DNA of 64,000 nt from a virus: the UHGV virus genome UHGV-0326727; one strand, given 5' to 3'. Position numbers and translations under genes: made by a program. Below the pieces are notes generated by a model. That model worked only from the letters and a program-made list of their open reading frames with translations, was not told the origin of the DNA and did not search any database. This document shows, one piece after another, positions 1,160 to 56,832 of this stretch (its first letter is position 1; each line of letters opens with the position of its first letter).

Positions 1160-1675
1160 TTATTTAACCTCAAAAACTGGTTCAAGAACCAATATAAAGT
1201 CTACACAGTCATCTTCTTCATCCAGAATACCATCAAAGTTCTTAGGAACGAAGTCGAAGAGGCTCATAACAAAACAGTCAGAAGTAACCCTAATAGTGCC
1301 TCCCATATTCTCTACAGTCAACACTGTACGACTTTCTTTTACCTCTCGCAGAAGATTGCTCACAAAGTCATCTAAGAAGTACTTCATCAGTGACTTAAAA
1401 CCTTTAGGATAATCTGTACCAGAGTATGTTTCAATCTGAGGTACAAGCTTAACATTTATACTAGTCTTTGCTAAGAACGTGCTAGAGAACATACTATCAG
1501 GTAACTTACAAACAGTCTTTCCAGTACCTTCATGTTCAATCTCAACAAAACCAGCTTCGTCGCCACATGTAACTATTTTAAAAGATGCTTCATTCTCATA
1601 CTGTGAAGCCATAAACTTTTTAAGCATGACTTTAAGGAAATCTGCATGAGCATCTTGTAAGTAGATATCAATCAT
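1160..1675 (-). CDS. hypothetical protein
   Basis: 171 aa ORF tightly packed in minus-strand operon. Confidence 0.4.
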   Translation of the reverse strand: MIDIYLQDAHADFLKVMLKKFMASQYENEASFKIVTCGDEAGFVEIEHEGTGKTVCKLPDSMFSSTFLAKTSINVKLVPQIETYSGTDYPKGFKSLMKYFLDDFVSNLLREVKESRTVLTVENMGGTIRVTSDCFVMSLFDFVPKNFDGILDEEDDCVDFILVLEPVFEVK

Positions 1676-1688
1676 AGTTAATCACCTA

Positions 1689-2048
1689 TTATGGGAACAG
1701 ACACTTGATGTCATCATTTTTGAAAACAAAACTTGTGTAGTTGTGACCATCAACATCCAGCCAAACAGCCTGAACATCTACACCATCAAGATTCTGGTAA
1801 AGCTCTTTGATGAAGTGGTCTTTTACAACCTGACTGCTAGTTGTTTCCAGCTTAATGTTAGAGATTGCTGAACCTACAGCCATATAACCCATGACACGTT
1901 TCTTCTCAGTATGCTTAATCTTACCATCTTTGTAAGCCATAATGAGATTGGAAAGAATCTTCACACCATAATACTTTTCAAGGTGAGTAGGTACACCATA
2001 AAAGCCTAATGCGAAGTTTTCAGAGTGGATAATGTTTTCACGTTTCAT
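1689..2048 (-). CDS. hypothetical protein
   Basis: 119 aa ORF, operon context. Confidence 0.4.
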   Translation of the reverse strand: MKRENIIHSENFALGFYGVPTHLEKYYGVKILSNLIMAYKDGKIKHTEKKRVMGYMAVGSAISNIKLETTSSQVVKDHFIKELYQNLDGVDVQAVWLDVDGHNYTSFVFKNDDIKCLFP

Positions 2049-2049
2049 A

Positions 2050-2349
2050 TTAATCTGCCAGCCTTAAATTAAAGTTAACACCAAATTTTTCACATACTTC
2101 CAACATAAACTCAAGGGAGACATTACCAGTGAGATTGATTATGTTGGATACACGAGCCTGAGAGATACCACAAATTTTAGCAACTTGCTCTTGAGAAAGA
2201 CCTCTGGATTTAATCTCTCTCTTAAAACGATGTGCAACGAAATCTCTCATTTCGTCTACATCCATTGGACAAATATAACTCTCCATTTCAGCCTCTCTGT
2301 CAGCCTCCCAATCATCTTGTGGAGCATAAGGGTCAAAAACCTCATTCAT
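2050..2349 (-). CDS. HTH (XRE-like) DNA-binding protein
   Basis: C-terminal LSQEQVAKICGISQARVSNII helix-turn-helix signature; start moved to internal Met (MNEVFDP) just after upstream stop. Confidence 0.5.
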   Translation of the reverse strand: MNEVFDPYAPQDDWEADREAEMESYICPMDVDEMRDFVAHRFKREIKSRGLSQEQVAKICGISQARVSNIINLTGNVSLEFMLEVCEKFGVNFNLRLAD

Positions 2350-2554
2350 CTTTCTTCCTCCGTTTGCGTGGAGTGTCAATCAATGAATCTATGTTTGTAG
2401 CCCTAACCTTTTCACGTTCATCGTTAAGGTAATCATCAAGAGCCTTTTCAATCTGTGAATCATCTTGACAGATAACTGTAAAGACTGTAAAGCCATCTGT
2501 ATCATCAATTATCTTACCATAACCGCTTCTGGGATGTAACTTTTTAAGAGCCAT
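2342..2554 (-). CDS. hypothetical protein, basic C-terminus
   Basis: 70 aa ORF ending ...PRKRRKKDE. Confidence 0.3.
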   Translation of the reverse strand: MALKKLHPRSGYGKIIDDTDGFTVFTVICQDDSQIEKALDDYLNDEREKVRATNIDSLIDTPRKRRKKDE

Positions 2555-2939: not shown

Positions 2940-3327
2940 AATGACCTCAAAGTTATATTAAATTTTGTATTACATTGAGTATAAAAATAAGCTATAACAC
3001 CTGACTTGTCAACAGATTTTATAGCTTATTTGGCAGATTTTTTATAAGGCTACTGCCATCCTTCCATACATTACCTTACCTTACCTCACCTGACCTGACC
3101 TGACCCTACCTAACATTACCGTGCCACACCTCACTTAAAAACCCTCTTAAAAGACTCTTAAGTGATGTAAGTCTCATTTTAATGTAGCTGAGACTAACTA
3201 CCCATACCTGACCGAACATTACTAGGCCTTACCAGACACTACAGAACAGGACAGCACCGCACCTTATTAAAAGACCCTGTTTAAAGACCTTTTAAAAAGG
3301 AGCCTCCGAAGAGGCTACCTAGTCAAC
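2940..3327. repeat. ORF-free modular repeat region (5-bp periodic ACC tract plus conserved blocks), copy 1
   Basis: cattaccttaccttacctcacctgacctgacctgaccctacc; shares a 42-bp identical block taagtctcattttaatgtagctgagactaactacccatacct and two 35-40 bp near-identical blocks with 4374-4786. Confidence 0.7.
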
Positions 3328-3768
3328 TTAGAAAGGTTTTCTACGTTGCTTGTTAATGTTAGCTTTCATAGCAGCTAAGTGGTTTTGCTGTTCAATCAGT
3401 CGTGAGCGTTCTTGATGGCTAAGTTCCATAGTGTTCACATTCTCAATAGCTTGAGTGGCTTGCTTTAAAGCTCGACCAATCTTACCAGACATTTTACGTT
3501 TTGCAATAGTTGCTTGATGTTTAGGTTCAACCACACGATAACCAACACCCATTGAAGCAACCAGATAAATCTTCTCTTCTTTAAGAAGCTTCTCAATAAA
3601 CTTCTCAAGTCGGTTTAGACGTGTAAGTGCATAAGCCTTCATTTCATCTTCGTACTTAACAATGTCGCCTTGATAAGTTGGCTTCATAATACCTAAGAAG
3701 GTGTCCATCTCAGAATGTGATACAGTGTCACCGTAACTAAACTTTGCTGCTAATGCTTTTGTATTCAT
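3328..3768 (-). CDS. hypothetical protein
   Basis: 146 aa ORF flanked by the two repeat regions. Confidence 0.4.
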   Translation of the reverse strand: MNTKALAAKFSYGDTVSHSEMDTFLGIMKPTYQGDIVKYEDEMKAYALTRLNRLEKFIEKLLKEEKIYLVASMGVGYRVVEPKHQATIAKRKMSGKIGRALKQATQAIENVNTMELSHQERSRLIEQQNHLAAMKANINKQRRKPF

Positions 3769-3770
3769 AA

Positions 3771-4786
<1,016 letters not shown>

Positions 4787-7140: not shown

Positions 7141-7355
7141 AGTAAACTCTCAATATTTACACGCTCACCTTTTAAGTAGCCTGTCTTATCTTTTGCGATT
7201 TTACCTCCAGCAATAAAGATATCTACTCTACGTAGAACTTCAGGGTTTACCTTCAAATTCCTACAGCTACTGCAAAGAACAATAAACATCCCTTCAATCT
7301 CTTTTTGAGAATAACCTGCACATTGCAACTGAACTTCAATCTCTGAAAGTGTCAT
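7137..7355 (-). CDS. small protein, paralog of 6722-6949
   Basis: See 6722-6949. Confidence 0.45.
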   Translation of the reverse strand: MTLSEIEVQLQCAGYSQKEIEGMFIVLCSSCRNLKVNPEVLRRVDIFIAGGKIAKDKTGYLKGERVNIESLL

Positions 7356-7406
7356 ATGTCCTCCTATACAAGATATTGTATAAGGTACTCTTCCATGAGC
7401 ACCTTG

Positions 7407-7931
7407 TCAAGATAGTTTTGCGAACTCTCCGTGTAGTTTTATAGCAGCTTCACAGTAAGCTTTATGGGCTTCTTCTGGTGTGTCAAACATACCAAGATGA
7501 TAGTTTTTACCCTGTAAACGAATCATTGCTCTAAACCTTTTACTTATTTTCTGTACACCTTTTGGCAATCCAGATAGGGACTTTCTTGACCGATTACAAG
7601 AGTTTTGTGAGGCTGTACAAACCCTCAAATTCAAGTATCTATTATCCCAACCATCTCCATTCTTATGGTCAACCTGTAAGGTTTTATCAGGTAGATACCC
7701 ATCCATGTATAGTATTACTAAACGGTTAGCTTGGTAGCCTTTACCATCAAGCAACAACTGAACAGACTTGTGACCATCTGTATTTATCCTATAATTACCT
7801 GCCTTTTTACCTCCAAAACGAGAGTTGAAGTTCCTATTACCTCGTGATATTGGCTCTCTAAACTTCCAAGTAAAGACCCCTGTTTCGGGGTCGTAGTCCA
7901 GTAGTTCCTTAAGACGAATTTCTGTAATCAT
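7407..7931 (-). CDS. HNH homing endonuclease with AP2-type DNA-binding domain
   Basis: HNH motif VDHKNGDGWDNRYLNLRVCT; C-terminal AP2-like FRAMIRLQGKNYHLGMFDTPEEAHKAYCEAA; free-standing 10 nt downstream of the polymerase stop; start set at in-frame ATG 7929-7931. Confidence 0.7.
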   Translation of the reverse strand: MITEIRLKELLDYDPETGVFTWKFREPISRGNRNFNSRFGGKKAGNYRINTDGHKSVQLLLDGKGYQANRLVILYMDGYLPDKTLQVDHKNGDGWDNRYLNLRVCTASQNSCNRSRKSLSGLPKGVQKISKRFRAMIRLQGKNYHLGMFDTPEEAHKAYCEAAIKLHGEFAKLS

Positions 7932-7941
7932 TTCAATACCA

Positions 7942-10671
7942 TCAATGCACTTCCAACCAGCTCTTACCAACCTTACCAGTGCCAGTTACAAGCGTCTCTC
8001 TCTTCAAACCCAAATTCTGAGATGCCTGACCATACATCCAGTCAGTTATAGCTTTAACCTCTTGAGTCATACTTTCTGGGCATTCCCAACTGTTTTCATC
8101 GTGGTATGCCAGCAAAAGTCTAGCACCGATTGCTGGTTTTCGTCCATTTAATTTTGTCAACCCTTCTTCACATGCCCTTCTACAAGCAAGGTTAATTGCC
8201 TCATTTTGAATCTGAGCCTCTGAACCCATCAAAAGATAGTTCAACAGTTTGTGTGGAGATTTACACCACAACCAAGCTCCAGCAACCCTTACAAAACCCC
8301 CTTTAGAGATTGCAGCAGTCTTACCAAACACCTCTTCAAGTGCCTTTTTAGTCGCTTTGTAGTCAGCTTCCAAGTCATCTAGCAGCTTCTTAATCTTAGG
8401 CAAACGGATAAAGTAAGTCTGTTTAGTCAGTGCACCTTCCTGAGTAGTTGCAGCTTTAATTGTCTTAGCAAACTTCTCATCACCTGCACCAAACAGTAGT
8501 GCATAGATGCCATTCTTAGCTTTCTTACGACCCTTGCTAATCTCATGAAGAAGGTTCTCATCCTGAGTAGCTCGACAAGTCAAGATATCCTGCTCATCAT
8601 TCAAGCTAAAGTAAATACTATTCAGTGTGTGTGCATCAGTCCCTGAATAGACAACGTAAAGGTCATTCTCAGAGTCATAACGCAGATACTTGTCAACTTC
8701 TGGGTTAAGGTACTCATCAAAATGTTTGCAGTAATAGCGTCCGTCTTCTTGACGAATAAATTCAATCTCTTCTTTACCTTGCGTTACCGCTTTGGTGAAG
8801 TCTTTGTCACCCATGAAGTTACAAAGAAGAACTAGCTGGGCTGAGTTCATGTCTACAGAGACAACGTTAGTACCTTCTTCACAAATCCACACTGCCCTCA
8901 TTGGTTCCCCATAGACAGCAGCACCAGACGGTACGTTTACAATACCATATTGTGTCATACGTCCAGTTGAAGTACCAAATACCATTGCACCAGCACTAAG
9001 GCGACCATCTGGACGAATCTGGTTCAACCAACCTTTTTCATCATCCTTTGAGTTCTCAATAGTTCTGCGTCTGTGCATCAAAGTATAGTACTTAGCAATC
9101 TTCTGTCCAAGCTCACCTTCAATCGTATCATAAGATGATTCAGTAAGCTTTGGTGAAGTCCTAATCAGACAAGGTTCAAGTAAATCTGTGTACTTCTTAA
9201 CAGACCAGTTATGCTCAATGTACTGGACACCTTCATGTTCAACATAACTCAAACCACACCGTTCAACCATCTCCTGCCACTTAGGATGCTTGGTAATCAT
9301 CTTTTTGTTGTCTTTGAAACGACAAACCTTAACAGGACGACCATCTGAGTCTTTCTTGTAGTTCCAGTCATCTGGAATCCAACCAACTGATTTCAAGTAG
9401 TCTTTAACAACTGCTACCTGAGTCATACGAGAAACTTCGAACTCAATTGGTGTATATGGTGCATCAATCAAACCTGTGTAGCGACTTGACTCAAGCTCAA
9501 AGTGGTTAACAACATGGCTGTTATAGTACTTCACAGTCTTAACTGTTTTTACTGGCTTCCAGTCTTTGCACTTCTTACCAATCTTTGCATTCAACTCATT
9601 GCAAATTGCACGAGCATCCTTCATTGCTACAAAGCCTTCATTGTACTCTTCACCAGTTACAGAGTTGGTTGGTGTATAGCAATTCCGCTTTTCAATGTTA
9701 AAAATCTTTGTAGTTGGCTTACCAAATGGCTTGATTTCATATGTCTGCATTTCACCATTACGTACCTGCTGACGATACTTTGTCTTAGGGTACTTGGTAA
9801 TTCTCTTCAGTCCATCTGCATGACCGAATGCTTCAACATACTCATTCCAAGCTTTTGCAAATTCTTCTCCAGTGACTTTACCTTTGGTCTTAATAGTTGG
9901 TGGAAGGTGTGGTTCAACTTCTGAAGCAAGCTCATTAGTCAACTTGTCAAGTTCCTTTGCATGGAACTCCATAAGCTCTTTATCAGCTTTCCAACCATTG
10001 ATAGCCTGTTGACTCATCCAGAAAGATGTTTCTTTAGCTCGCATATAGGTTTCATAAGTATCTATGCCACACTTCTTCAGCTTGAGATATTCATTATCCA
10101 GTGCACGTTTAGTTTTGGCGTTAATACGGATATCTTCTACAACACGAGTGAAGATTTCTGCATTCCACACACCCCAATGTTCAATCTCTGGTTTACGTAC
10201 ACCAACACGAGCACCCCATGCTGCCAAGCCATGAGCACCTTTATAACCTTTTGGAGTTGGTCTATCCATCCACTGAACACGAGACTGGATAAGAGAATCC
10301 TGAAAGAAATTACTCCACGGCTTACACTTTGGATTATCAAAGTTCCACAAATCAGGTGCAATGTGATTGAAAACCCACCAGTCATACCCCAGACCATTAT
10401 GGATGCAGAGTCGTTTTGCCTTTAACGCAAACTCAATGCCTTCACGTAAGCCACCCTTAATGTACTTGGTATACTTGTGACCGAGGATAGGTTCATCTGT
10501 AAAGACCCATACAGGCGGCTCTTCATCGTCAGATTTATAGTCTGCGAAAGCCATTACGTGCACTTTAGTGAACTCAAGGAGTAAACCATCAGTTTCTGTA
10601 TCACCAACTAAATGTAAGTTTTTAAAATCTACGTTTTCCATTTTTACTCCCTCTAAAATCATTAACCTCAT
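7942..10671 (-). CDS. DNA polymerase, family A (Pol I-like) with 3'-5' exonuclease domain
   Basis: 909 aa; exo I motif GDTETDGL; motif B-like RKKAKNGIYALLFGAG; motif C YHDE; C-terminus ends ...SWLEVH (terminal His typical of family A). Confidence 0.85.
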   Translation of the reverse strand: MRLMILEGVKMENVDFKNLHLVGDTETDGLLLEFTKVHVMAFADYKSDDEEPPVWVFTDEPILGHKYTKYIKGGLREGIEFALKAKRLCIHNGLGYDWWVFNHIAPDLWNFDNPKCKPWSNFFQDSLIQSRVQWMDRPTPKGYKGAHGLAAWGARVGVRKPEIEHWGVWNAEIFTRVVEDIRINAKTKRALDNEYLKLKKCGIDTYETYMRAKETSFWMSQQAINGWKADKELMEFHAKELDKLTNELASEVEPHLPPTIKTKGKVTGEEFAKAWNEYVEAFGHADGLKRITKYPKTKYRQQVRNGEMQTYEIKPFGKPTTKIFNIEKRNCYTPTNSVTGEEYNEGFVAMKDARAICNELNAKIGKKCKDWKPVKTVKTVKYYNSHVVNHFELESSRYTGLIDAPYTPIEFEVSRMTQVAVVKDYLKSVGWIPDDWNYKKDSDGRPVKVCRFKDNKKMITKHPKWQEMVERCGLSYVEHEGVQYIEHNWSVKKYTDLLEPCLIRTSPKLTESSYDTIEGELGQKIAKYYTLMHRRRTIENSKDDEKGWLNQIRPDGRLSAGAMVFGTSTGRMTQYGIVNVPSGAAVYGEPMRAVWICEEGTNVVSVDMNSAQLVLLCNFMGDKDFTKAVTQGKEEIEFIRQEDGRYYCKHFDEYLNPEVDKYLRYDSENDLYVVYSGTDAHTLNSIYFSLNDEQDILTCRATQDENLLHEISKGRKKAKNGIYALLFGAGDEKFAKTIKAATTQEGALTKQTYFIRLPKIKKLLDDLEADYKATKKALEEVFGKTAAISKGGFVRVAGAWLWCKSPHKLLNYLLMGSEAQIQNEAINLACRRACEEGLTKLNGRKPAIGARLLLAYHDENSWECPESMTQEVKAITDWMYGQASQNLGLKRETLVTGTGKVGKSWLEVH

Positions 10672-10701
10672 ACATTACTGCAAAAAATTATAAAAAGCAA
10701 G

Positions 10702-10730
10702 TTGACAATGTGCTTGACAAGGTGTTAATC
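10702..10730 (+). promoter_or_regulatory. sigma70-like promoter in divergent intergenic region
   Basis: A-rich upstream, TTGACA (10702-10707), 17-bp spacer containing a second TTGACAAGGTG, -10 TTAATC. Confidence 0.4.
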
Positions 10731-10898
10731 TTTGCGAAGTGGGTTTTTACTTAAAAGGTTACTTAACAGTTTAACTATACAGATACTTTAAAACTCTTAA
10801 AAGATTATTTAATAGCTTTTAAAAAGCTTTAAAGTATAACGTATAGAATACGTTAAGATAAAAGATTAAAACTTAATAGTTACTTAAAAGAGGCTTAC

Positions 10899-23841: not shown

Positions 23842-25986
23842 ATGAACAAAGTACAAATTATTAAAAAGAATGGCTCACTTGAAGAACCGGATATCAAAAA
23901 AGTTTTAGCAGCAGTAACTAAGTCAGCTAACAGGGTTGGATATAAAGAACTTCCACCAGATGTTACCCAAGCTCTTGAGTCAGCATTTATGAGGATTCTG
24001 GTGAAGTCCACTAAGCAGAATAATTTGCTCATCTCAGTAAACGATATTCACAGCATTGTTGAGGGTGCTTTGGCAGAAGTAAATCACGAGATTTATGAGT
24101 CTTACTCAACATACAGAAATTACCGTAAAGAGGTTGCTCAAAATTGGGATGAGCTTTACCAAAAGACCAGAGACACACTCTTCTTAGGTGACCGTGAAAA
24201 TGCTAACTTTGACAGCAGTTTAATTTCTACAAAAGGCTCAATTATTCGTGGTTACTTGACTAAAGAAATCTTTAAACAGTACCATTTAACACCAGAGGAA
24301 CTCGAAGCCATTGAAAAAGGGTTTATCTACATCCATGACTTAAGAGACCTAATTTTTGGTGGGATTAACTGTTGCTTGTTTGACATTGGTAAAGTACTGA
24401 AAGGTGGCTTTGAAATGTCTGGCATCGAATACTGTGAACCGAAGTCTGTACTGTCAGCCTTACAAGTTATCGGTGATGTAGTTCTTTCAGCAACTGCACA
24501 GCAATTTGGTGGATTTACTTTAGCAGAGATTGATAAGGTACTTGTACCGTATGCTAAGAAGTCTCTACGCTATCATGCTGAGAAAGCAGCATCTTATGGT
24601 ATTCCTAAAGAACATTACCATAATTATGTCATGGAGCAGCTACAGATTGAATTAACTCAAGGTTTCCAGTCACTAGAGATGAAGCTAAATACTGTACCTT
24701 GTAGCCGTGGTGATTTCGCATTCACAACTTTAACATTTGGTTTACTTGACTCAGACATGTCTAATGAAGACAACCGACTACAATACATGATTGCAAACAC
24801 CATTCTTGATGTTCGCATGAATGGACAAGGTAAGAGCAAGAAGCCTGTTGTATTCCCTAAACTGGTTTATATTCATGACCAGAAGAGACACGATGAGAAT
24901 ATCTGTCAAGGTCAACTGTACAGTAAAGCTATTGAGTGTTGCTCTAAAGCTATGTATCCAGATTTCTTAAGTGTATCTGGTCATGGTGCTGTAGCAGAGG
25001 CTTTTGAGCGTTCTGGCAAGGTAATTTCACCGATGGGTTGCAGAGCTTTCTTATCCCCATATCTTAACGAGAATGGAGAAGAGTTCTACGTTGGTCGTGC
25101 TAATATTGGTGCTGTATCTTTGAACTTACCTATGATTTACCAGTATTCTAAAGAGAATGGTTTAGATTTCTGGAAAGAACTTGATAAGTACCTAGAGATG
25201 ATTCGCAGCTTCCACAAGAAACGCTACGAAATGATTGCTAATATGCCAGCAAGTTCTAACCCTCTTGCATTCACACAAGGTGGTTTGTACAAAGGAACTA
25301 AAAAACCTACCGACAAGGTTGGTTGGGATATCGTGAAGTCCTTCACAGCTTCTTTTGGGGTTACTGCGCTTGATGAGTTGTCTGTTCTTGCTGAAGGTAA
25401 ACGACTCCATGAAGTTGGAAGTTCTAGTTTTGCATACGATGTTCTGGCATACATTAACATGAAAACTGAAGAGTTTAAGAATGAAGATGGCTTCCTGTAT
25501 GCAGTATATGGCACTCCAGCAGAGTCATTGTGTGGAACTCAGCTAAAACAGTTCAGAGATATGTTTGGTGTTATCAAAGGCGTTTCTGACAAGGAATACT
25601 TTACAAACAGTTTCCATATGAATGTTGCAGCAAACATTTCACCATTTGAGAAGCAGGACTTAGAAGAGCCATTCTTCCACATCTGTAGAGGTGGCAGAAT
25701 CCAGTATGTAAGGGTAGCTAACCCAGAAAACTTAACAGCACTTAAAAGTTGTATTACCAGAGGGATGTTGAAAGGTTTTTATCAGGGGCTTAACTTTGAC
25801 TTAGCAATCTGTGAGCATTGTGGTAACAGACCAAAGGCTGATGTTGAAGAATGTGAGGTTTGCCATTCACATGATATCTCTGTGATTAACAGGGTGTGTG
25901 GTTATCTTGGATGGACTAAGATTAAAGGTGAATCCCGAATGAATGATGCAAAAATTGCTGAGATTCGTGACAGAGTTTCTATGTAA
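23842..25986 (+). CDS. nrdD: anaerobic ribonucleotide reductase (class III) catalytic subunit
   Basis: 714 aa; C-terminal Cys cluster CEHCGN...CEVCHS and glycyl-radical-type motif RVCGYLG. Confidence 0.8.
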   Translation: MNKVQIIKKNGSLEEPDIKKVLAAVTKSANRVGYKELPPDVTQALESAFMRILVKSTKQNNLLISVNDIHSIVEGALAEVNHEIYESYSTYRNYRKEVAQNWDELYQKTRDTLFLGDRENANFDSSLISTKGSIIRGYLTKEIFKQYHLTPEELEAIEKGFIYIHDLRDLIFGGINCCLFDIGKVLKGGFEMSGIEYCEPKSVLSALQVIGDVVLSATAQQFGGFTLAEIDKVLVPYAKKSLRYHAEKAASYGIPKEHYHNYVMEQLQIELTQGFQSLEMKLNTVPCSRGDFAFTTLTFGLLDSDMSNEDNRLQYMIANTILDVRMNGQGKSKKPVVFPKLVYIHDQKRHDENICQGQLYSKAIECCSKAMYPDFLSVSGHGAVAEAFERSGKVISPMGCRAFLSPYLNENGEEFYVGRANIGAVSLNLPMIYQYSKENGLDFWKELDKYLEMIRSFHKKRYEMIANMPASSNPLAFTQGGLYKGTKKPTDKVGWDIVKSFTASFGVTALDELSVLAEGKRLHEVGSSSFAYDVLAYINMKTEEFKNEDGFLYAVYGTPAESLCGTQLKQFRDMFGVIKGVSDKEYFTNSFHMNVAANISPFEKQDLEEPFFHICRGGRIQYVRVANPENLTALKSCITRGMLKGFYQGLNFDLAICEHCGNRPKADVEECEVCHSHDISVINRVCGYLGWTKIKGESRMNDAKIAEIRDRVSM

Positions 25987-25995
25987 AACTTGACA

Positions 25996-26036
25996 AGGTG
26001 GTGTGAGTCTTGATAGGCTTACATCACCTTTTTTTA
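25996..26036 (+). terminator. rho-independent terminator
   Basis: aggtggtgt...acatcacct stem followed by TTTTTTT, right after the nrdD stop. Confidence 0.5.
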
Positions 26037-34599: not shown

Positions 34600-34604
34600 A
34601 GTGT

Positions 34605-34634
34605 TTGACAAGGGGCTTTGAAGCCCCTTAGAAT
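34605..34634 (+). promoter_or_regulatory. sigma70-like promoter with hairpin in spacer
   Basis: TTGACA at 34605-34610, about 18-bp spacer forming aggggctttgaagcccct hairpin, -10 TAGAAT. Confidence 0.35.
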
Positions 34635-40943: not shown

Positions 40944-41033
40944 AAAGTACTTTACAGGGGGCTTAAAAGCTGATATCTTAAGCCCCAGATAAAGAGCTTT
41001 ACTTAATTAACCCTTAAACTAGGAGATTCAAAA

Positions 41034-42396: not shown

Positions 42397-42487
42397 ATAG
42401 ACCTCTTTACACGGGGCTAACAAGCGGATATGATAGCCCCAGATAAAGAGATTTATCAAATTAACCCTTAAACTAGGAGATTCAAAA

Positions 42488-43659: not shown

Positions 43660-43744
43660 AGTACTTTACAAGGGGCTTATAGTTCGATAAAGTAAGCCCC
43701 AGATAAAGAGCTTTACCACTCAATCCTAAATTGGAGATTCTAAA

Positions 43745-44456: not shown

Positions 44457-44543
44457 AGTACTTTACAAGGGGCTTATAGTTCGATAAAGTAAGCCCCAGA
44501 TAAAGAGCTTTATCACTAAATCCTTAAACTAGGAGATTCAAAA

Positions 44544-45848: not shown

Positions 45849-45877
45849 TTGACAATACCCCTTGACATTGGTAAATT
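45849..45877 (+). promoter_or_regulatory. sigma70-like promoter
   Basis: TTGACA, 17-bp spacer, TAAATT. Confidence 0.5.
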
Positions 45878-45944
45878 TGTTCGAGGGGGTTTATCTAAAA
45901 GGGATTAACTTAAAAGATTCTTTATAGATAAGCTTAAAAAATTG

Positions 45945-47223: not shown

Positions 47224-47260
47224 TCGACGCAACGGGGCAAATAGCCCCAGATACCTTTAC

Positions 47261-47284
47261 AGCCCCTTAAATGGGGCTTTTTTA
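47261..47284 (+). terminator. rho-independent terminator ending the plus-strand array
   Basis: agccccttaaatggggct hairpin followed by TTTTTT. Confidence 0.65.
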
Positions 47285-47285
47285 C

Positions 47286-48810
47286 GTCTTATCAAATCCC
47301 TATGCAATCCTTTCCCTTTCCTTTCCAGAATCTATCCCATACCTTAAAAGCAATAACTCTATAGCTTACTCTATAGCCCCTTATCAAATCAACTTAAATA
47401 TAAGCCCATAACCCGAAAGGGAAGGGCAACCATTTAAACGCTCTATAAAGCCCTATAACAGCCTTATCAACCTAACTTAAGGGATTGCATTACCTCACCC
47501 TTAAAAGCCCTTTATAAAGCTTCCCAGAGCCTTAAAAGAATCTTATAAGGGTGTAAGCTTTATTATCTCGTTAGCTATCTTGTGAATGGTTAAACAACCC
47601 CTTGATAGTCACTAAAAAGTATGTTATAGGGGCTATAAAGTTACTTCAAAGTTACGTAAATGCTAGCCCCCTTAACATTTTCTTAACAATTTCTTAACAA
47701 TCCCTACATAGTTATGCTTTTAAGGCACTTGTTAGCAACTTGTTAGCCCCTTGTTAAATCTCTGTTAATACCTCGTAAAAGCCTTGTAAGAGCCTTTGGC
47801 ATAGCCTTTAAAGCTTCTGTAAAGCCTTATAAAGAGCTTTCTACATAGTTGGGGTGTAATTACTAGAAAGAGATTAAAAAGAGCTTATAAGGGGCTATAA
47901 AGGGCTTTTAAGAGGGCTATTTAAAGAGTCACTAAGAAGGAAAGGGAACGATAAGAAAGAGATAGTGACCATGTTAATAGCTTGTTAAAAAGATTAGACA
48001 CTTGTTAGGAACTTGTTAATTATCTTAACAAAATAACTCTTTAAAATTAACTTGTTAGCTCTTGTTAGTCATCTGTTAAGCCTCTGTAAAGACTATGTAT
48101 CAACTGTTAAGAAACTGTTAAGCTCTTGTTAGTTCTGTTAAGGAACTGTTAAGACCTCTGAAGAGATGTTAAGAAGATGTAGCAACTGTTAAGGGATTGT
48201 TAATGATATTTTAAAATTCTGCAAAGGGGATGTTACAGAGATGTTAAGGGCTACCAAGCAGATATACATCTTCTACAGATATTTTTCAGTTCCTTCAAAG
48301 ACCCTAAAAAATGACTTGATAGTCCTATTTTATAAAAATTTTAAAATTCTGAATAATTACCTATACAGTCTTTTAAAAATACAGGCATAAACAGGCTTAT
48401 AAGATACCTTGTTAGTACCGTGTTAGACCTTGTGAGATAAGGTCTGTAAAGATATTCCTGTTAAGTTTGTTAAAACAGCCTATATAGAGGCTTAGTAATA
48501 CCTAGTGAACACCTATAGAGGGTAACATAGCTAACCTAGAGATTAAGAGGTGTATAGGGGCTTCTAAGAGGGTGTAGAGTGATGGTTAAGGTGATTGTAT
48601 AGGTTGTTAAGAAGGCTTGTTAGAAGAGTGTTTAGAAGGGCTATACAGAGGGGCTATTAAGACCACTAGATAGATACTAAGATACTATATAGTACTATAT
48701 AACTATATATATAGAGAGTAAGCTTAAGAAGGTTGTTAAGAAGGTTAGATATTTTATTCACATATGATGGTGACCCATAGGTTGGGACAACCGATAAAAT
48801 TTTATAAAAA
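47286..48810. repeat. 1.5-kb ORF-free island of degenerate 9-11 bp periodic repeats
   Basis: No ORF of 60 aa or more on either strand; repeat families ccTTATAAag/cTATAAAG (about 47400-47900), CTTGTTAG/CTGTTAAG in both orientations (47680-48200, e.g. caactgttaag aaactgttaag ctcttgttag ttctgttaag gaactgttaag), and a TATATA-rich tract near 48650-48720. Confidence 0.75.
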
Positions 48811-48811
48811 T

Positions 48812-48836
48812 TAAAAAGCCCCCAATTAAGGAGGCT
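48812..48836 (-). terminator. rho-independent terminator for the minus-strand block
   Basis: Reverse complement reads agcctccttaattgggggct + TTTTT, the same hairpin as at 12154-12177. Confidence 0.6.
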
Positions 48837-48847
48837 CTTAAGATATT

Positions 48848-49441
48848 TTAAATCAATGTTTCCAGAACTGTCTTCAGTGATGACTTGGTTGTCTGATAAA
48901 AATGAGTGAATCCATTGTTGTTATCGAATACTTGCATCATGATGTCATCTCCCTTGATTGGGTACACTCGGATATCATAGTGAAAACCATTAAAGACACA
49001 AGAACCACTACAGAATGCTCTAAAGTCATCCACTGAGATATACTCTTCATGTCCTGTGATTTTTATACAAACACCTTTACTCGGTCTCTTAGGGTTGATA
49101 TCTTCCATCACAGACATGCTCTGTCCACCAAGAGAGACCATAGTGACCACTTTACGGTTCTTCTGTCTAAAGTACATCTTAACTTTCTGCAAAGTGTCTT
49201 CATAGAACGGATAAGACCTTTCTACAAAGATTCCTTCAAGTGGCTCTTTACCATTTTCAACTTCTCTGTTATGCCGTACTGCAAAGATAATTTGTTGGAA
49301 CCAGTCAAAATTTTCTTCAGATAGTGCTTCCCGAACATCAGCCCAATCAAGGACTAGGTAGTTGCCTTCAACATCTTTTAAGTTATCTTTTTCCATATCT
49401 ATCACACCATTATCGTAAAACTTGGTAATCTGGTACTGCAA
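48848..49441 (-). CDS. hypothetical protein
   Basis: 197 aa ORF, last gene of minus-strand block. Confidence 0.4.
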   Translation of the reverse strand: MQYQITKFYDNGVIDMEKDNLKDVEGNYLVLDWADVREALSEENFDWFQQIIFAVRHNREVENGKEPLEGIFVERSYPFYEDTLQKVKMYFRQKNRKVVTMVSLGGQSMSVMEDINPKRPSKGVCIKITGHEEYISVDDFRAFCSGSCVFNGFHYDIRVYPIKGDDIMMQVFDNNNGFTHFYQTTKSSLKTVLETLI

Positions 49442-56604: not shown

Positions 56605-56832
56605 GGCAGACCTACAGCTTTAAGTAAGATGGTACAGTAATCCATACAACAAGTCAAGAACTATTGCAAGTTAAAAAAGTTGTTGACAAAGTACTTGACA
56701 AGGTGTAGGCTTATAAATACTTAGAAGATAACTTAAAAGGTTCCTCTAAAAAGGCTATTTAAACAGATATCTTTCTGGATATCTATCTTTTATCTTAAAA
56801 GCCTTTTAAGAGGTCTTATAAGAGGCATACCA

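Follow-up and report, generated by a model that had tools for sequence, protein, structure and literature searches.

What is the meaning of a 12-nucleotide word, CTTGACAAGGTG, that recurs at several gene boundaries of a Felix O1-like phage: is it a regulatory site in its own right, or is it part of a promoter? Phages of the Felix O1 type are widely used in Salmonella typing and in biocontrol. The word was examined in a window of 64,000 nucleotides (the whole stretch of DNA that was analysed; GC content 38.7%), assigned by megablast to the genus Felixounavirus: it is 95.6% identical to Salmonella phage GE_vB_7A, and most of the 275 megablast records are 90-95% identical to it. The lineage is that of the Ounavirinae, and not T4-like. 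The gene map was taken from the annotation of Alf5 and Felix O1; 24 tRNA genes are located at 58.9-63.2 kb, and tRNAs are the only Rfam families found in the window, with no other known RNA family. The genome paper of Felix O1 called temporal control in this phage unknown (PMC3185647).

Recurrence and location of the word

Four exact copies of CTTGACAAGGTG are present in the window, together with a variant, TTTGACAAGGGG, at a fifth place (Table 1). The sequence-only reading in which the word was first noticed had listed the three copies of the plus strand and the variant, all of which are found where it placed them, and had overlooked an exact copy of the minus strand, the fourth, at 7400-7411. 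The two tandem TTGACA pairs which it had described also exist, at 10702/10714 and 56683/56695, each with 12 bp from start to start, the word being the second member of the pair at two of its exact copies (10713 and 56694).

Counted genome-wide against expectation, a comparison proposed in that same reading, the four copies stand against an expected 0.01, obtained from dinucleotide-preserving shuffles (100 runs), none of which reached four. The outcome that this reading had named as refuting it, namely a count in line with the frequency of TTGACA, was addressed by conditioning on the hexamer: TTGACA occurs 84 times in the window on both strands, four of these occurrences carry the flanks C and AGGTG (binomial P = 6e-10), and a 6-nt flank of any kind common to at least four TTGACA sites appeared in only 3 of 20,000 simulation runs. 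The frequency of TTGACA alone therefore does not account for the count, and chance recurrence of the word is ruled out by the shuffles and by the TTGACA-conditioned flank test.

Two copies with one mismatch, at 9940 and 51844 (both on the minus strand), lie inside coding sequence and were not counted as sites; the former reads Leu-Asp-Lys-Leu in the DNA polymerase gene. A related word, CTTTACAAGGGG, occurs at 43664 and 44461. A longer mobile repeat around the 12-mer was considered and rejected: only the two divergent regions share more, namely 35 nt at 83% identity and a downstream ACTTAAAAGGTT box, and the other copies have nothing in common beyond the word. Direct comparison of the stretches that follow the five copies revealed no other element common to them at a constant offset, and the papers retrieved by a literature search on the word contained it in unrelated primers only.

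All five sites lie at gene boundaries, as the claim of intergenic recurrence had it, and each copy is oriented toward the downstream gene according to the ORF map and the annotation of relatives. An exact TTGACA hexamer is present at five of five sites, and at each of them a promoter scan detected a TTGACA with a TAnnnT box at a distance of 17-18 bp. At the tandem sites this TTGACA is the first of the pair: the hexamer inside the word itself (10714 and 56695) lacks a TAnnnT box 16-18 bp further on. The distance from the word to the -10 box is 17-18 bp at three sites and 5-6 bp at the two tandem ones.

Felix O1 and relatives belonging to three genera have orthologous copies of the word. In Felix O1, a genome-wide search with up to one mismatch found a copy at all five orthologous places and none in the late structural region. 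The first position of the word (C) varies among orthologous sites, being C, G or A. In the cross-genus alignments, no change is seen in the hexamers or in T1, A2 and T6 of the -10 box, whereas the spacer and the inner bases of the -10 box are variable: selection acts on the hexamers and not on the spacer, which is the pattern expected of working promoters. Position, orientation and conservation pattern were all directly observed.

Part of these promoters had already been annotated. For the relative AYO145A, 16 promoters are mentioned (PMC4472883), and in its GenBank record four of the five sites (rII, the gp40/41 region, the gp94 site and the gp96/97 region) have orthologs annotated as promoters "similar to TTGACA(N15-18)TATAAT"; the 30-nt annotation in the gp96/97 region spans exactly the first TTGACA of the pair (H1), the 18 bp and TAATCT. 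P41 is listed in the paper on Felix O1, whose authors state that they saw no further obvious signal in either divergent region (PMC3185647). Neither transcription start sites nor binding data for any Felixounavirus were found in the literature searched.

The best explanation, which we consider likely, is that CTTGACAAGGTG represents the -35 TTGACA, flanked by one preceding and five following bases, in paralogous promoters of the host sigma-70 type; the extra identity beyond the hexamer would be due to shared ancestry of the cassettes and to constraints that differ from copy to copy. We infer that sigma-70 polymerase uses these promoters. Against this reading it counts that AAGGTG is retained at four separate sites in three genera, more than shared ancestry alone predicts. 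The proposal of a specific regulatory site stands in part: the word is non-random, lies at gene boundaries, is associated with transcription signals and is kept in relatives, but the evidence does not support a single specific site distinct from the promoter. The recurrent word is a real but fairly ordinary feature.

Table 1. Copies of the word and associated features in the 64-kb window (promoter and terminator elements are predicted; H1 and H2, first and second TTGACA of a tandem pair)
Feature	Position	Strand	Details
12-mer CTTGACAAGGTG, gp94 site	7400..7411	-	Between HNH endonuclease gene (gp95) and gp94, downstream of DNA polymerase gene; its TGA is the HNH gene stop codon
-35 TTGACA, gp94	7410..7405	-	Spacer 17 bp
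Two predicted hairpins, gp94	7365..7404	-	AGGUGCUC/GAGUACCU, 7404..7383; UAUACAA/UUGUAUA, 7382..7365
Candidate -10 TACCTT, gp94	7387..7382	-	17 bp from TTGACA; ribosome-binding site and ATG at 7355 downstream
H1, gp97 region	10702..10707	+	-35 of rightward promoter for gp97 and replication genes; spacer 18 bp; A-rich ATAAAAAGCAAG upstream
12-mer CTTGACAAGGTG, gp97 region	10713..10724	+	Divergent region DNA polymerase (gp96)/gp97; H2 at 10714-10719; inside spacer of H1 promoter; last TG at 10723-10724
-10 TAATCT, gp97	10726..10731	+	TAnnnT; kept as TA(A/G)TCT
12-mer CTTGACAAGGTG, nrdD site	25989..26000	+	Three bases after nrdD stop codon (25984-25986); TTGACA 25990-25995 is the -35 box; spacer 18 bp; -10 TAGGCT
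Intrinsic terminator, nrdD	25995..26035	+	16-bp stem 25995-26010/26015-26030, loop UGAU, then U run
Variant word TTTGACAAGGGG, rII site	34604..34615	+	Between rIIA and rIIB
Element with variant word, rII	34604..34634	+	-35 at 34605-34610; stem-loop 34610-34629; spacer 18 bp; -10 TAGAAT 34629-34634; upstream of rIIB
Related cassette	43664..43705	+	CTTTACAAGGGG, then hairpin GGGGCUUA/UAAGCCCC; -10 TAAAGT in loop
Second copy of CTTTACAAGGGG cassette	44461..44502	+	
H1, gp41 region	56683..56688	+	-35 of rightward promoter for gp41, gp42 and tRNA cluster; spacer 17 bp; AAAAAAGTTG upstream
12-mer CTTGACAAGGTG, gp41 region	56694..56705	+	Divergent region gp40/gp41; H2 at 56695-56700; inside spacer of H1 promoter
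-10 TAGGCT, gp41	56706..56711	+	Only T1, A2 and T6 invariant across genera

Stem-loops at the nrdD, rII and gp94 sites

At the nrdD and rIIA/rIIB sites, and probably at gp94, the bases which follow TTGACA open a stem-loop, which sits in the -35/-10 interval or covers the -10 box. Behind nrdD, the arms are AAGGUGGUGUGAGUCU, which starts at the last A of TTGACA, and AGGCUUACAUCACCUU, and the hairpin has a folding energy of -23.7 kcal/mol (z = -6.0) and is followed by a U run of 7. The AAGGTG of this copy lies within the 5' arm of the terminator, and an extended -10 box, TGaTAGGCT (26011-26019), sits in the loop and the 3' arm, 18 bp from TTGACA. The hairpin and its covariation are observed in an alignment of 26 orthologs: 97.3% of the cells pair, a share that falls to 35-58% on sliding the 3' partner, and changes on both sides are seen in two pairs of the stem, one of them that of the last G of the 12-mer, where G-C becomes A-U (GGTG/CACC to GGTA/TACC). 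The loop TCTTGATAGGCTT and TGaTAGGCT are invariant.

By its predicted structure, the nrdD element is an intrinsic terminator with a promoter built in. Transcripts arriving from upstream would fold the stem-loop and would terminate there in vivo, in the case of the nrdD copy, or at least end or be processed at this point. A polymerase starting at the embedded promoter would begin inside the 3' arm, so its RNA, devoid of the 5' arm, could not fold the terminator and would read on. Neither the AYO145A record nor the consulted part of the terminator table of Felix O1 annotates this terminator, and its identification, embedded promoter included, is one of the outcomes of the present analysis. The genes following the nrdD cassette differ in several relatives, and in some relatives (L071-L074, L081) the cassette is separated from nrdD by an inserted HNH gene.

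At the rII site, the stem-loop AAGGGGCU/AGCCCCUU fills the 18-bp spacer (-15.5 kcal/mol, z = -3.0), and the AAGGGG of the variant word constitutes the 5' arm of this structure. The stem is kept in the alignment and the loop is variable (TTTGAA or TTCAAA); at the rII site of SUSP2, a Susp-type phage, the A after TTGACA is missing and the spacer measures 17 bp.

The conserved block upstream of gp94 begins exactly at TTGACA, irrespective of the presence of the HNH gene upstream. Its hairpins (-16 kcal/mol, z = -2.1) are weaker than those of the other cassettes, and the stems are identical in all seven orthologs, so that covariation speaks neither for nor against them; here the bases after TTGACA probably open a modelled stem-loop between -35 and -10. 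The assignment of the -10 box is uncertain, TACCTT at 17 bp being our candidate as against the TATACT at 22 bp of the AYO145A annotation; TACC(T/A)T holds the TAnnnT pattern in seven of seven sequences. The hairpins at 7404-7365 and 34610-34629 are not followed by a U run.

Twin TTGACA boxes in the divergent regions and the rival readings

No RNA structure is predicted at the copies of the two divergent regions (z = -0.2 at 10713 and +0.5 at 56694). The working -35 box would be here the upstream TTGACA, H1, with an A-rich element before it, and the 12-mer, including the second TTGACA (H2), would fall within its spacer. In the gp97 region, H1 is invariant in 24 felixounaviruses and in Moogle- and Susp-type relatives; the bases between H1 and H2 vary (ATGTG, AATAA, AAGCA, AATCA or ATTCA), both hexamers being invariant. 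The -10 region reads TGnTA(A/G)TCT, with TG kept and n variable across genera, and the TG which closes the 12-mer would serve as the extended -10 motif (TGnTAnTCT) of the gp97 promoter. Transcription is predicted to start near 10737-10738, with a leader of about 160 nt.

In the gp41 region, H1 and H2 are invariant in 23 sequences representing 10 haplotypes and three genera, Moogle- and Susp-type phages included, and the six bases between the boxes vary freely. The -10 box takes the forms TAGGCT, TAGCCT, TAGTGT and TAAGTT across genera. After H2 this copy is looser (A, G/C, G/A/C, T, G/A), the bases following TTGACAA being CG, GA or GC. Since gp42 has no close homolog in deeper relatives, the comparison of this region was limited to the nearer genera.

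H2 was rejected as an ordinary -35 box, as no usable -10 box is found at 16-18 bp: the corresponding hexamer is AAGTGG for 10714 and TACTTA or CACTTA for 56695. A leftward promoter through the complement, TTGTCA, was likewise discarded, with no -10 box at a workable distance when checked by hand. Judging from the alignments, H2 is under selection in both divergent regions, and the plain promoter model does not account for it. In the gp97 region, the H2 hexamer and AGG (10720-10722) are unaccounted for by polymerase contacts or RNA structure, the other positions of the word being accounted for. The Kolesnikvirus phages phiEa104 and SB18 and Pectobacterium phage Wc4-1 have upstream of gp97 a single CTTGACAC with a -10 box, and both AAGGTG and the twin box are absent from that region in these three phages. 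Conserved twin TTGACA boxes had not been previously described for the Felix O1-like group.

The likeness to the sigma-70 promoters of enterobacteria comprises the TTGACA -35 box, the TAnnnT box 17-18 bp further on, the A-rich stretch upstream of the strong copies and a conservation centred on the hexamers and on T1, A2 and T6; as in extended -10 promoters, TGn precedes weak -10 boxes (TGtTAATCT, TGaTAGGCT). They differ in that the inner positions of the phage -10 boxes are weak (TAGGCT, TACCTT, TAATCT) and in that two phage sites carry an equally conserved second TTGACA in the spacer. For Felix O1-type phages this would provide a consistent promoter reading, based on the TTGACA/-10 pairings and on extended -10 motifs that may compensate for weak -10 boxes. 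In practice the gain is modest and consists in improved annotation and in a sounder design of engineered derivatives of Felix O1.

The invariance of H2 in both divergent regions and in three genera, in spite of its spacer position and its varying neighbours, speaks for a different function, that of an operator: TTGACAAGGTG and the twin TTGACA-N6-TTGACA would be bound by a phage DNA-binding protein that shuts off or switches the promoters. A candidate is available, since the window encodes a Cro/C1-type helix-turn-helix protein of the HTH_3 family (2050-2379, minus strand; Pfam E = 5e-11), homologous to Felix O1 gp85; TTGACAAGGTG is kept at four sites in three genera, and the genome paper of Felix O1, which calls temporal control unknown, leaves a place for such a protein. 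Homologs of HTH_3 were found in 259 phage records of Escherichia, Salmonella, Shigella and Citrobacter and in no Erwinia or Pectobacterium relative, and these HTH_3-lacking relatives are also without twin boxes and AAGGTG at the gp97 promoter; the co-occurrence amounts, however, to a single phylogenetic event. Moreover, the word does not keep a fixed distance to the -10 box (see above), its dyad symmetry is limited to CTTG.CAAG, which is too short to be useful and contains a C that is not conserved, one of its positions changes together with its partner in a hairpin, at the gp41 site the bases behind TTGACAA drift and no second element is shared at a fixed offset, so that an operator is regarded as rather unlikely. 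The more elaborate proposal, in which the twin boxes and TTGACAAGGTG would form the operator set of a timing switch specific to the Felix O1 group, a phage protein that recognises a -35-like word turning both divergent regions and also three internal restart points off or on, again with HTH_3 as the candidate, is unlikely; if true, such a switch would offer a first way into the temporal control of these phages. Activator or repressor sites overlapping the -35 region are known from the lambda CII repeats (TTGC-N6-TTGC) and from the T4 MotA boxes. With these the phage sites share a short word at or near the -35 box, repeated at several promoters, and at the tandem sites a TTG-containing direct repeat; unlike them, the repeat has a period of 12 bp instead of 10, the word is identical to the host -35 consensus and does not take its place, and its position with respect to the -10 box is not fixed. 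No MotA/AsiA-like gene has been reported for Felix O1 (PMC3185647).

The opposite view, that the four identical copies are neutral leftovers of cassette duplication or recombination and that the extension is functionless at every copy, agrees with the sequence shared by the divergent regions (the 35 nt and the ACTTAAAAGGTT box), with the gp41 copy reading CTTGACAAGGTG followed by TAGGCTTA, which corresponds to the nrdD cassette with 13 internal bases removed, and with the differences between orthologs at position 1 and at several later positions. It is nevertheless improbable: the compensatory change in the nrdD stem, the TG conserved beside a variable n and the invariant H2 beside variable neighbours imply selection on parts of the extension. 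H2 might also be, at the tandem sites, the -35 box of an overlapping second promoter, read in another register or by a phage-modified polymerase, with starts about 12 nt apart. Both hexamers are invariant and TACTTA lies 17 bp downstream of 56695, exactly 12 bp after TAGGCT, but it lacks the critical final T, CACTTA and an extra base take its place in other genera, and at 10714 the corresponding hexamer is AAGTGG, which makes such a promoter very improbable. Hardly any credit can be given to the word as the recognition site of a homing endonuclease, suggested by the HNH genes located directly upstream at two loci (between the DNA polymerase gene and the cassette, at 7407-7970 of the window, and between nrdD and the cassette in the relatives mentioned above), for BLASTP shows no relation between the two HNH proteins (E = 0.21), and near the other three copies there is no gene for an endonuclease.

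Resemblance to the stem-loop promoter cassettes of T4-type phages

The reading of the word as part of a sigma-70 promoter family finds a counterpart for its hairpin copies in the PeSL (promoter-early stem-loop) cassettes of T4-type phages. The PeSL stem-loops lie mostly between the -35 and -10 boxes or overlap the -10 box, and act as terminators (PMC2839356); the cassettes consist of a sigma-70-like early promoter and a G/C-rich stem-loop, and are found mainly in hyperplastic regions and at the breakpoints of indels (Arbiol et al. 2010, PMC2839356; Comeau et al. 2014, PMC4122927). In the same way, the hairpin copies described here combine a sigma-70-like promoter with a G-rich/C-rich stem-loop placed between -35 and -10 or over -10, are repeated in the gene-variable small-ORF region at 40.6-47.3 kb and are found at breakpoints of gene insertion or replacement. 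They differ in lineage, the present one being the Ounavirinae and mini-circle recombination by PeSL being known for T4-type phages; in addition, the two tandem-box copies have no stem-loop at all (z about 0). The hairpin copies resemble PeSL in architecture and by this analogy would work like them, which is the wording preferred to membership of the described set because the lineage is different and because recombination and termination, known for PeSL, are putative here. No paper describing PeSL-like cassettes in Ounavirinae was found in the literature search: the promoters were already annotated in a relative, but the PeSL-like design had not been described for the Felix O1-like group. Such cassettes outside the T4 group would support the existence of a general means by which lytic phages insulate and shuffle small genes.

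The cassettes mark the boundaries of changes in gene content, with variable genes after nrdD and HNH insertions upstream at two loci. The small-ORF region between 40600 and 47300 is covered to at least 80% in only 7 of 255 relatives; 225 of 275 relatives, by contrast, cover the polymerase region. The small-ORF region contains five to six cassettes of the type TTTACA-GGGGCTTA...TAAGCCCC, in addition to repeated ribosome-binding-site blocks, and the repeat families D1, D2, D6, D7 and D9 lie in 40.9-47 kb. The same element was recorded in Felix O1 by its authors only as a 57-bp direct repeat (PMC3185647). The -35 boxes of the five to six copies, which belong to repeat family D1, were located by the promoter scan at 40951, 41423, 41802, 42406, 43665 and 44462. 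The fold at 43672-43700 has a z of -3.8, and in the copy at 42406 the stem is shortened on both arms (GGGGCTA/TAGCCCC).

Conservation and leaders of the divergent control regions

The two divergent intergenic regions, lying between gp96 (DNA polymerase) and gp97 and between gp40 and gp41, are near-invariant across 24 felixounaviruses, and their identity to the Moogle- and Susp-type genera, related to Felixounavirus, is still above 90%. The coding DNA that flanks them is less conserved than the intergenic regions themselves; the identity of the gp41 protein in Moogle- and Susp-type phages is only 77-83%.

Public records differ among themselves as to the position of the start codon of the DNA polymerase, encoded on the minus strand. 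Three ATGs are in frame (10671, 10662 and 10641), the last of which is served by a GAGGGAG ribosome-binding site. Upstream of this ATG there is also a candidate promoter directed leftward (TTGCTT at 10700..10695, a spacing of 17 bp and TAATGT at 10677..10672).

The word CTTAAAAG occurs at 32 sites in the window versus 5.5 expected. Each of the two divergent control regions has a long leader in which it is clustered, and words of this type make up the arms of long, imperfect inverted repeats there. The folds of the two leaders have z-scores of -2.2 and -2.6.

Coordinates of the features (window positions unless stated otherwise)
Feature	Position	Strand	Remarks
Divergent intergenic region, gp96/gp97	10672-10898
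Divergent intergenic region, gp40/gp41	56605-56832
CTTAAAAG clusters	10750-10890, 56732-56810, 47343-47912
Third twin TTGACA	45849-45890		spacing 13 bp
Hairpin GGTATTGACAATGTGTTTGATACC	58716-58748		TTGACA in loop; between gp42 and tRNA cluster
gp42	57286-58701
HNH homing-endonuclease gene	7407-7970	-
HNH homing-endonuclease genes in relatives	about 1208-1765		positions within loci L071-L074 and L081
Non-coding stretch between gene blocks	47230-48850
~95-nt repeat, four copies	3073-3300 and 4466-4722		families D3, D12

Promoter cassettes, hairpins and HNH genes

The hairpin GGTATTGACAATGTGTTTGATACC, which appears as terminator t42 in the Felix O1 list, is followed on its 3' side by TAATAT, 17 bp from the TTGACA in its loop; this site is another overlap of promoter and terminator, with a different geometry, and its fold is weak in the window genome (z = -0.6). 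In the third TTGACA twin, the second box falls within a CCCCUUG/CGAGGGG hairpin (z = -2.5), which also overlaps the -10 box TAAATT. As regards gp42, directly upstream of the cluster of 24 tRNAs, it is a Ro-like/vWFA (DUF2828, DUF7788) RNA-binding protein with homologs in highly diverse phages, those of Vibrio, Campylobacter, Listeria and Mycobacterium.

At two different loci, one in the window and the other next to nrdD in relatives, an HNH gene is inserted exactly between the stop codon of a conserved gene and the downstream promoter cassette. The HNH genes at these two loci are unrelated to each other, and the TGA stop codon of the window gene falls within the TTGACA box.

Repeat-rich non-coding DNA

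Two convergent gene blocks are separated by ~1.6 kb without coding sequence, the counterpart of the Felix O1 gap at genes 23/24, in which short repeated words are dense (CTTGTTAG, CTGTTAAG, CTTATAAG, CTATAAAG and CTTAAAAG). Possible roles for this stretch are those of an origin, of a region for packaging or of an array bound by protein. Further repeats, of ~95 nt, are housed in the non-coding DNA on both sides of the gene pair at 3328-4373, being composed of ACCTNACC-like units with a period of 8 nt and of the terminal words CTTAAAAA/CTCTTAAAAG.
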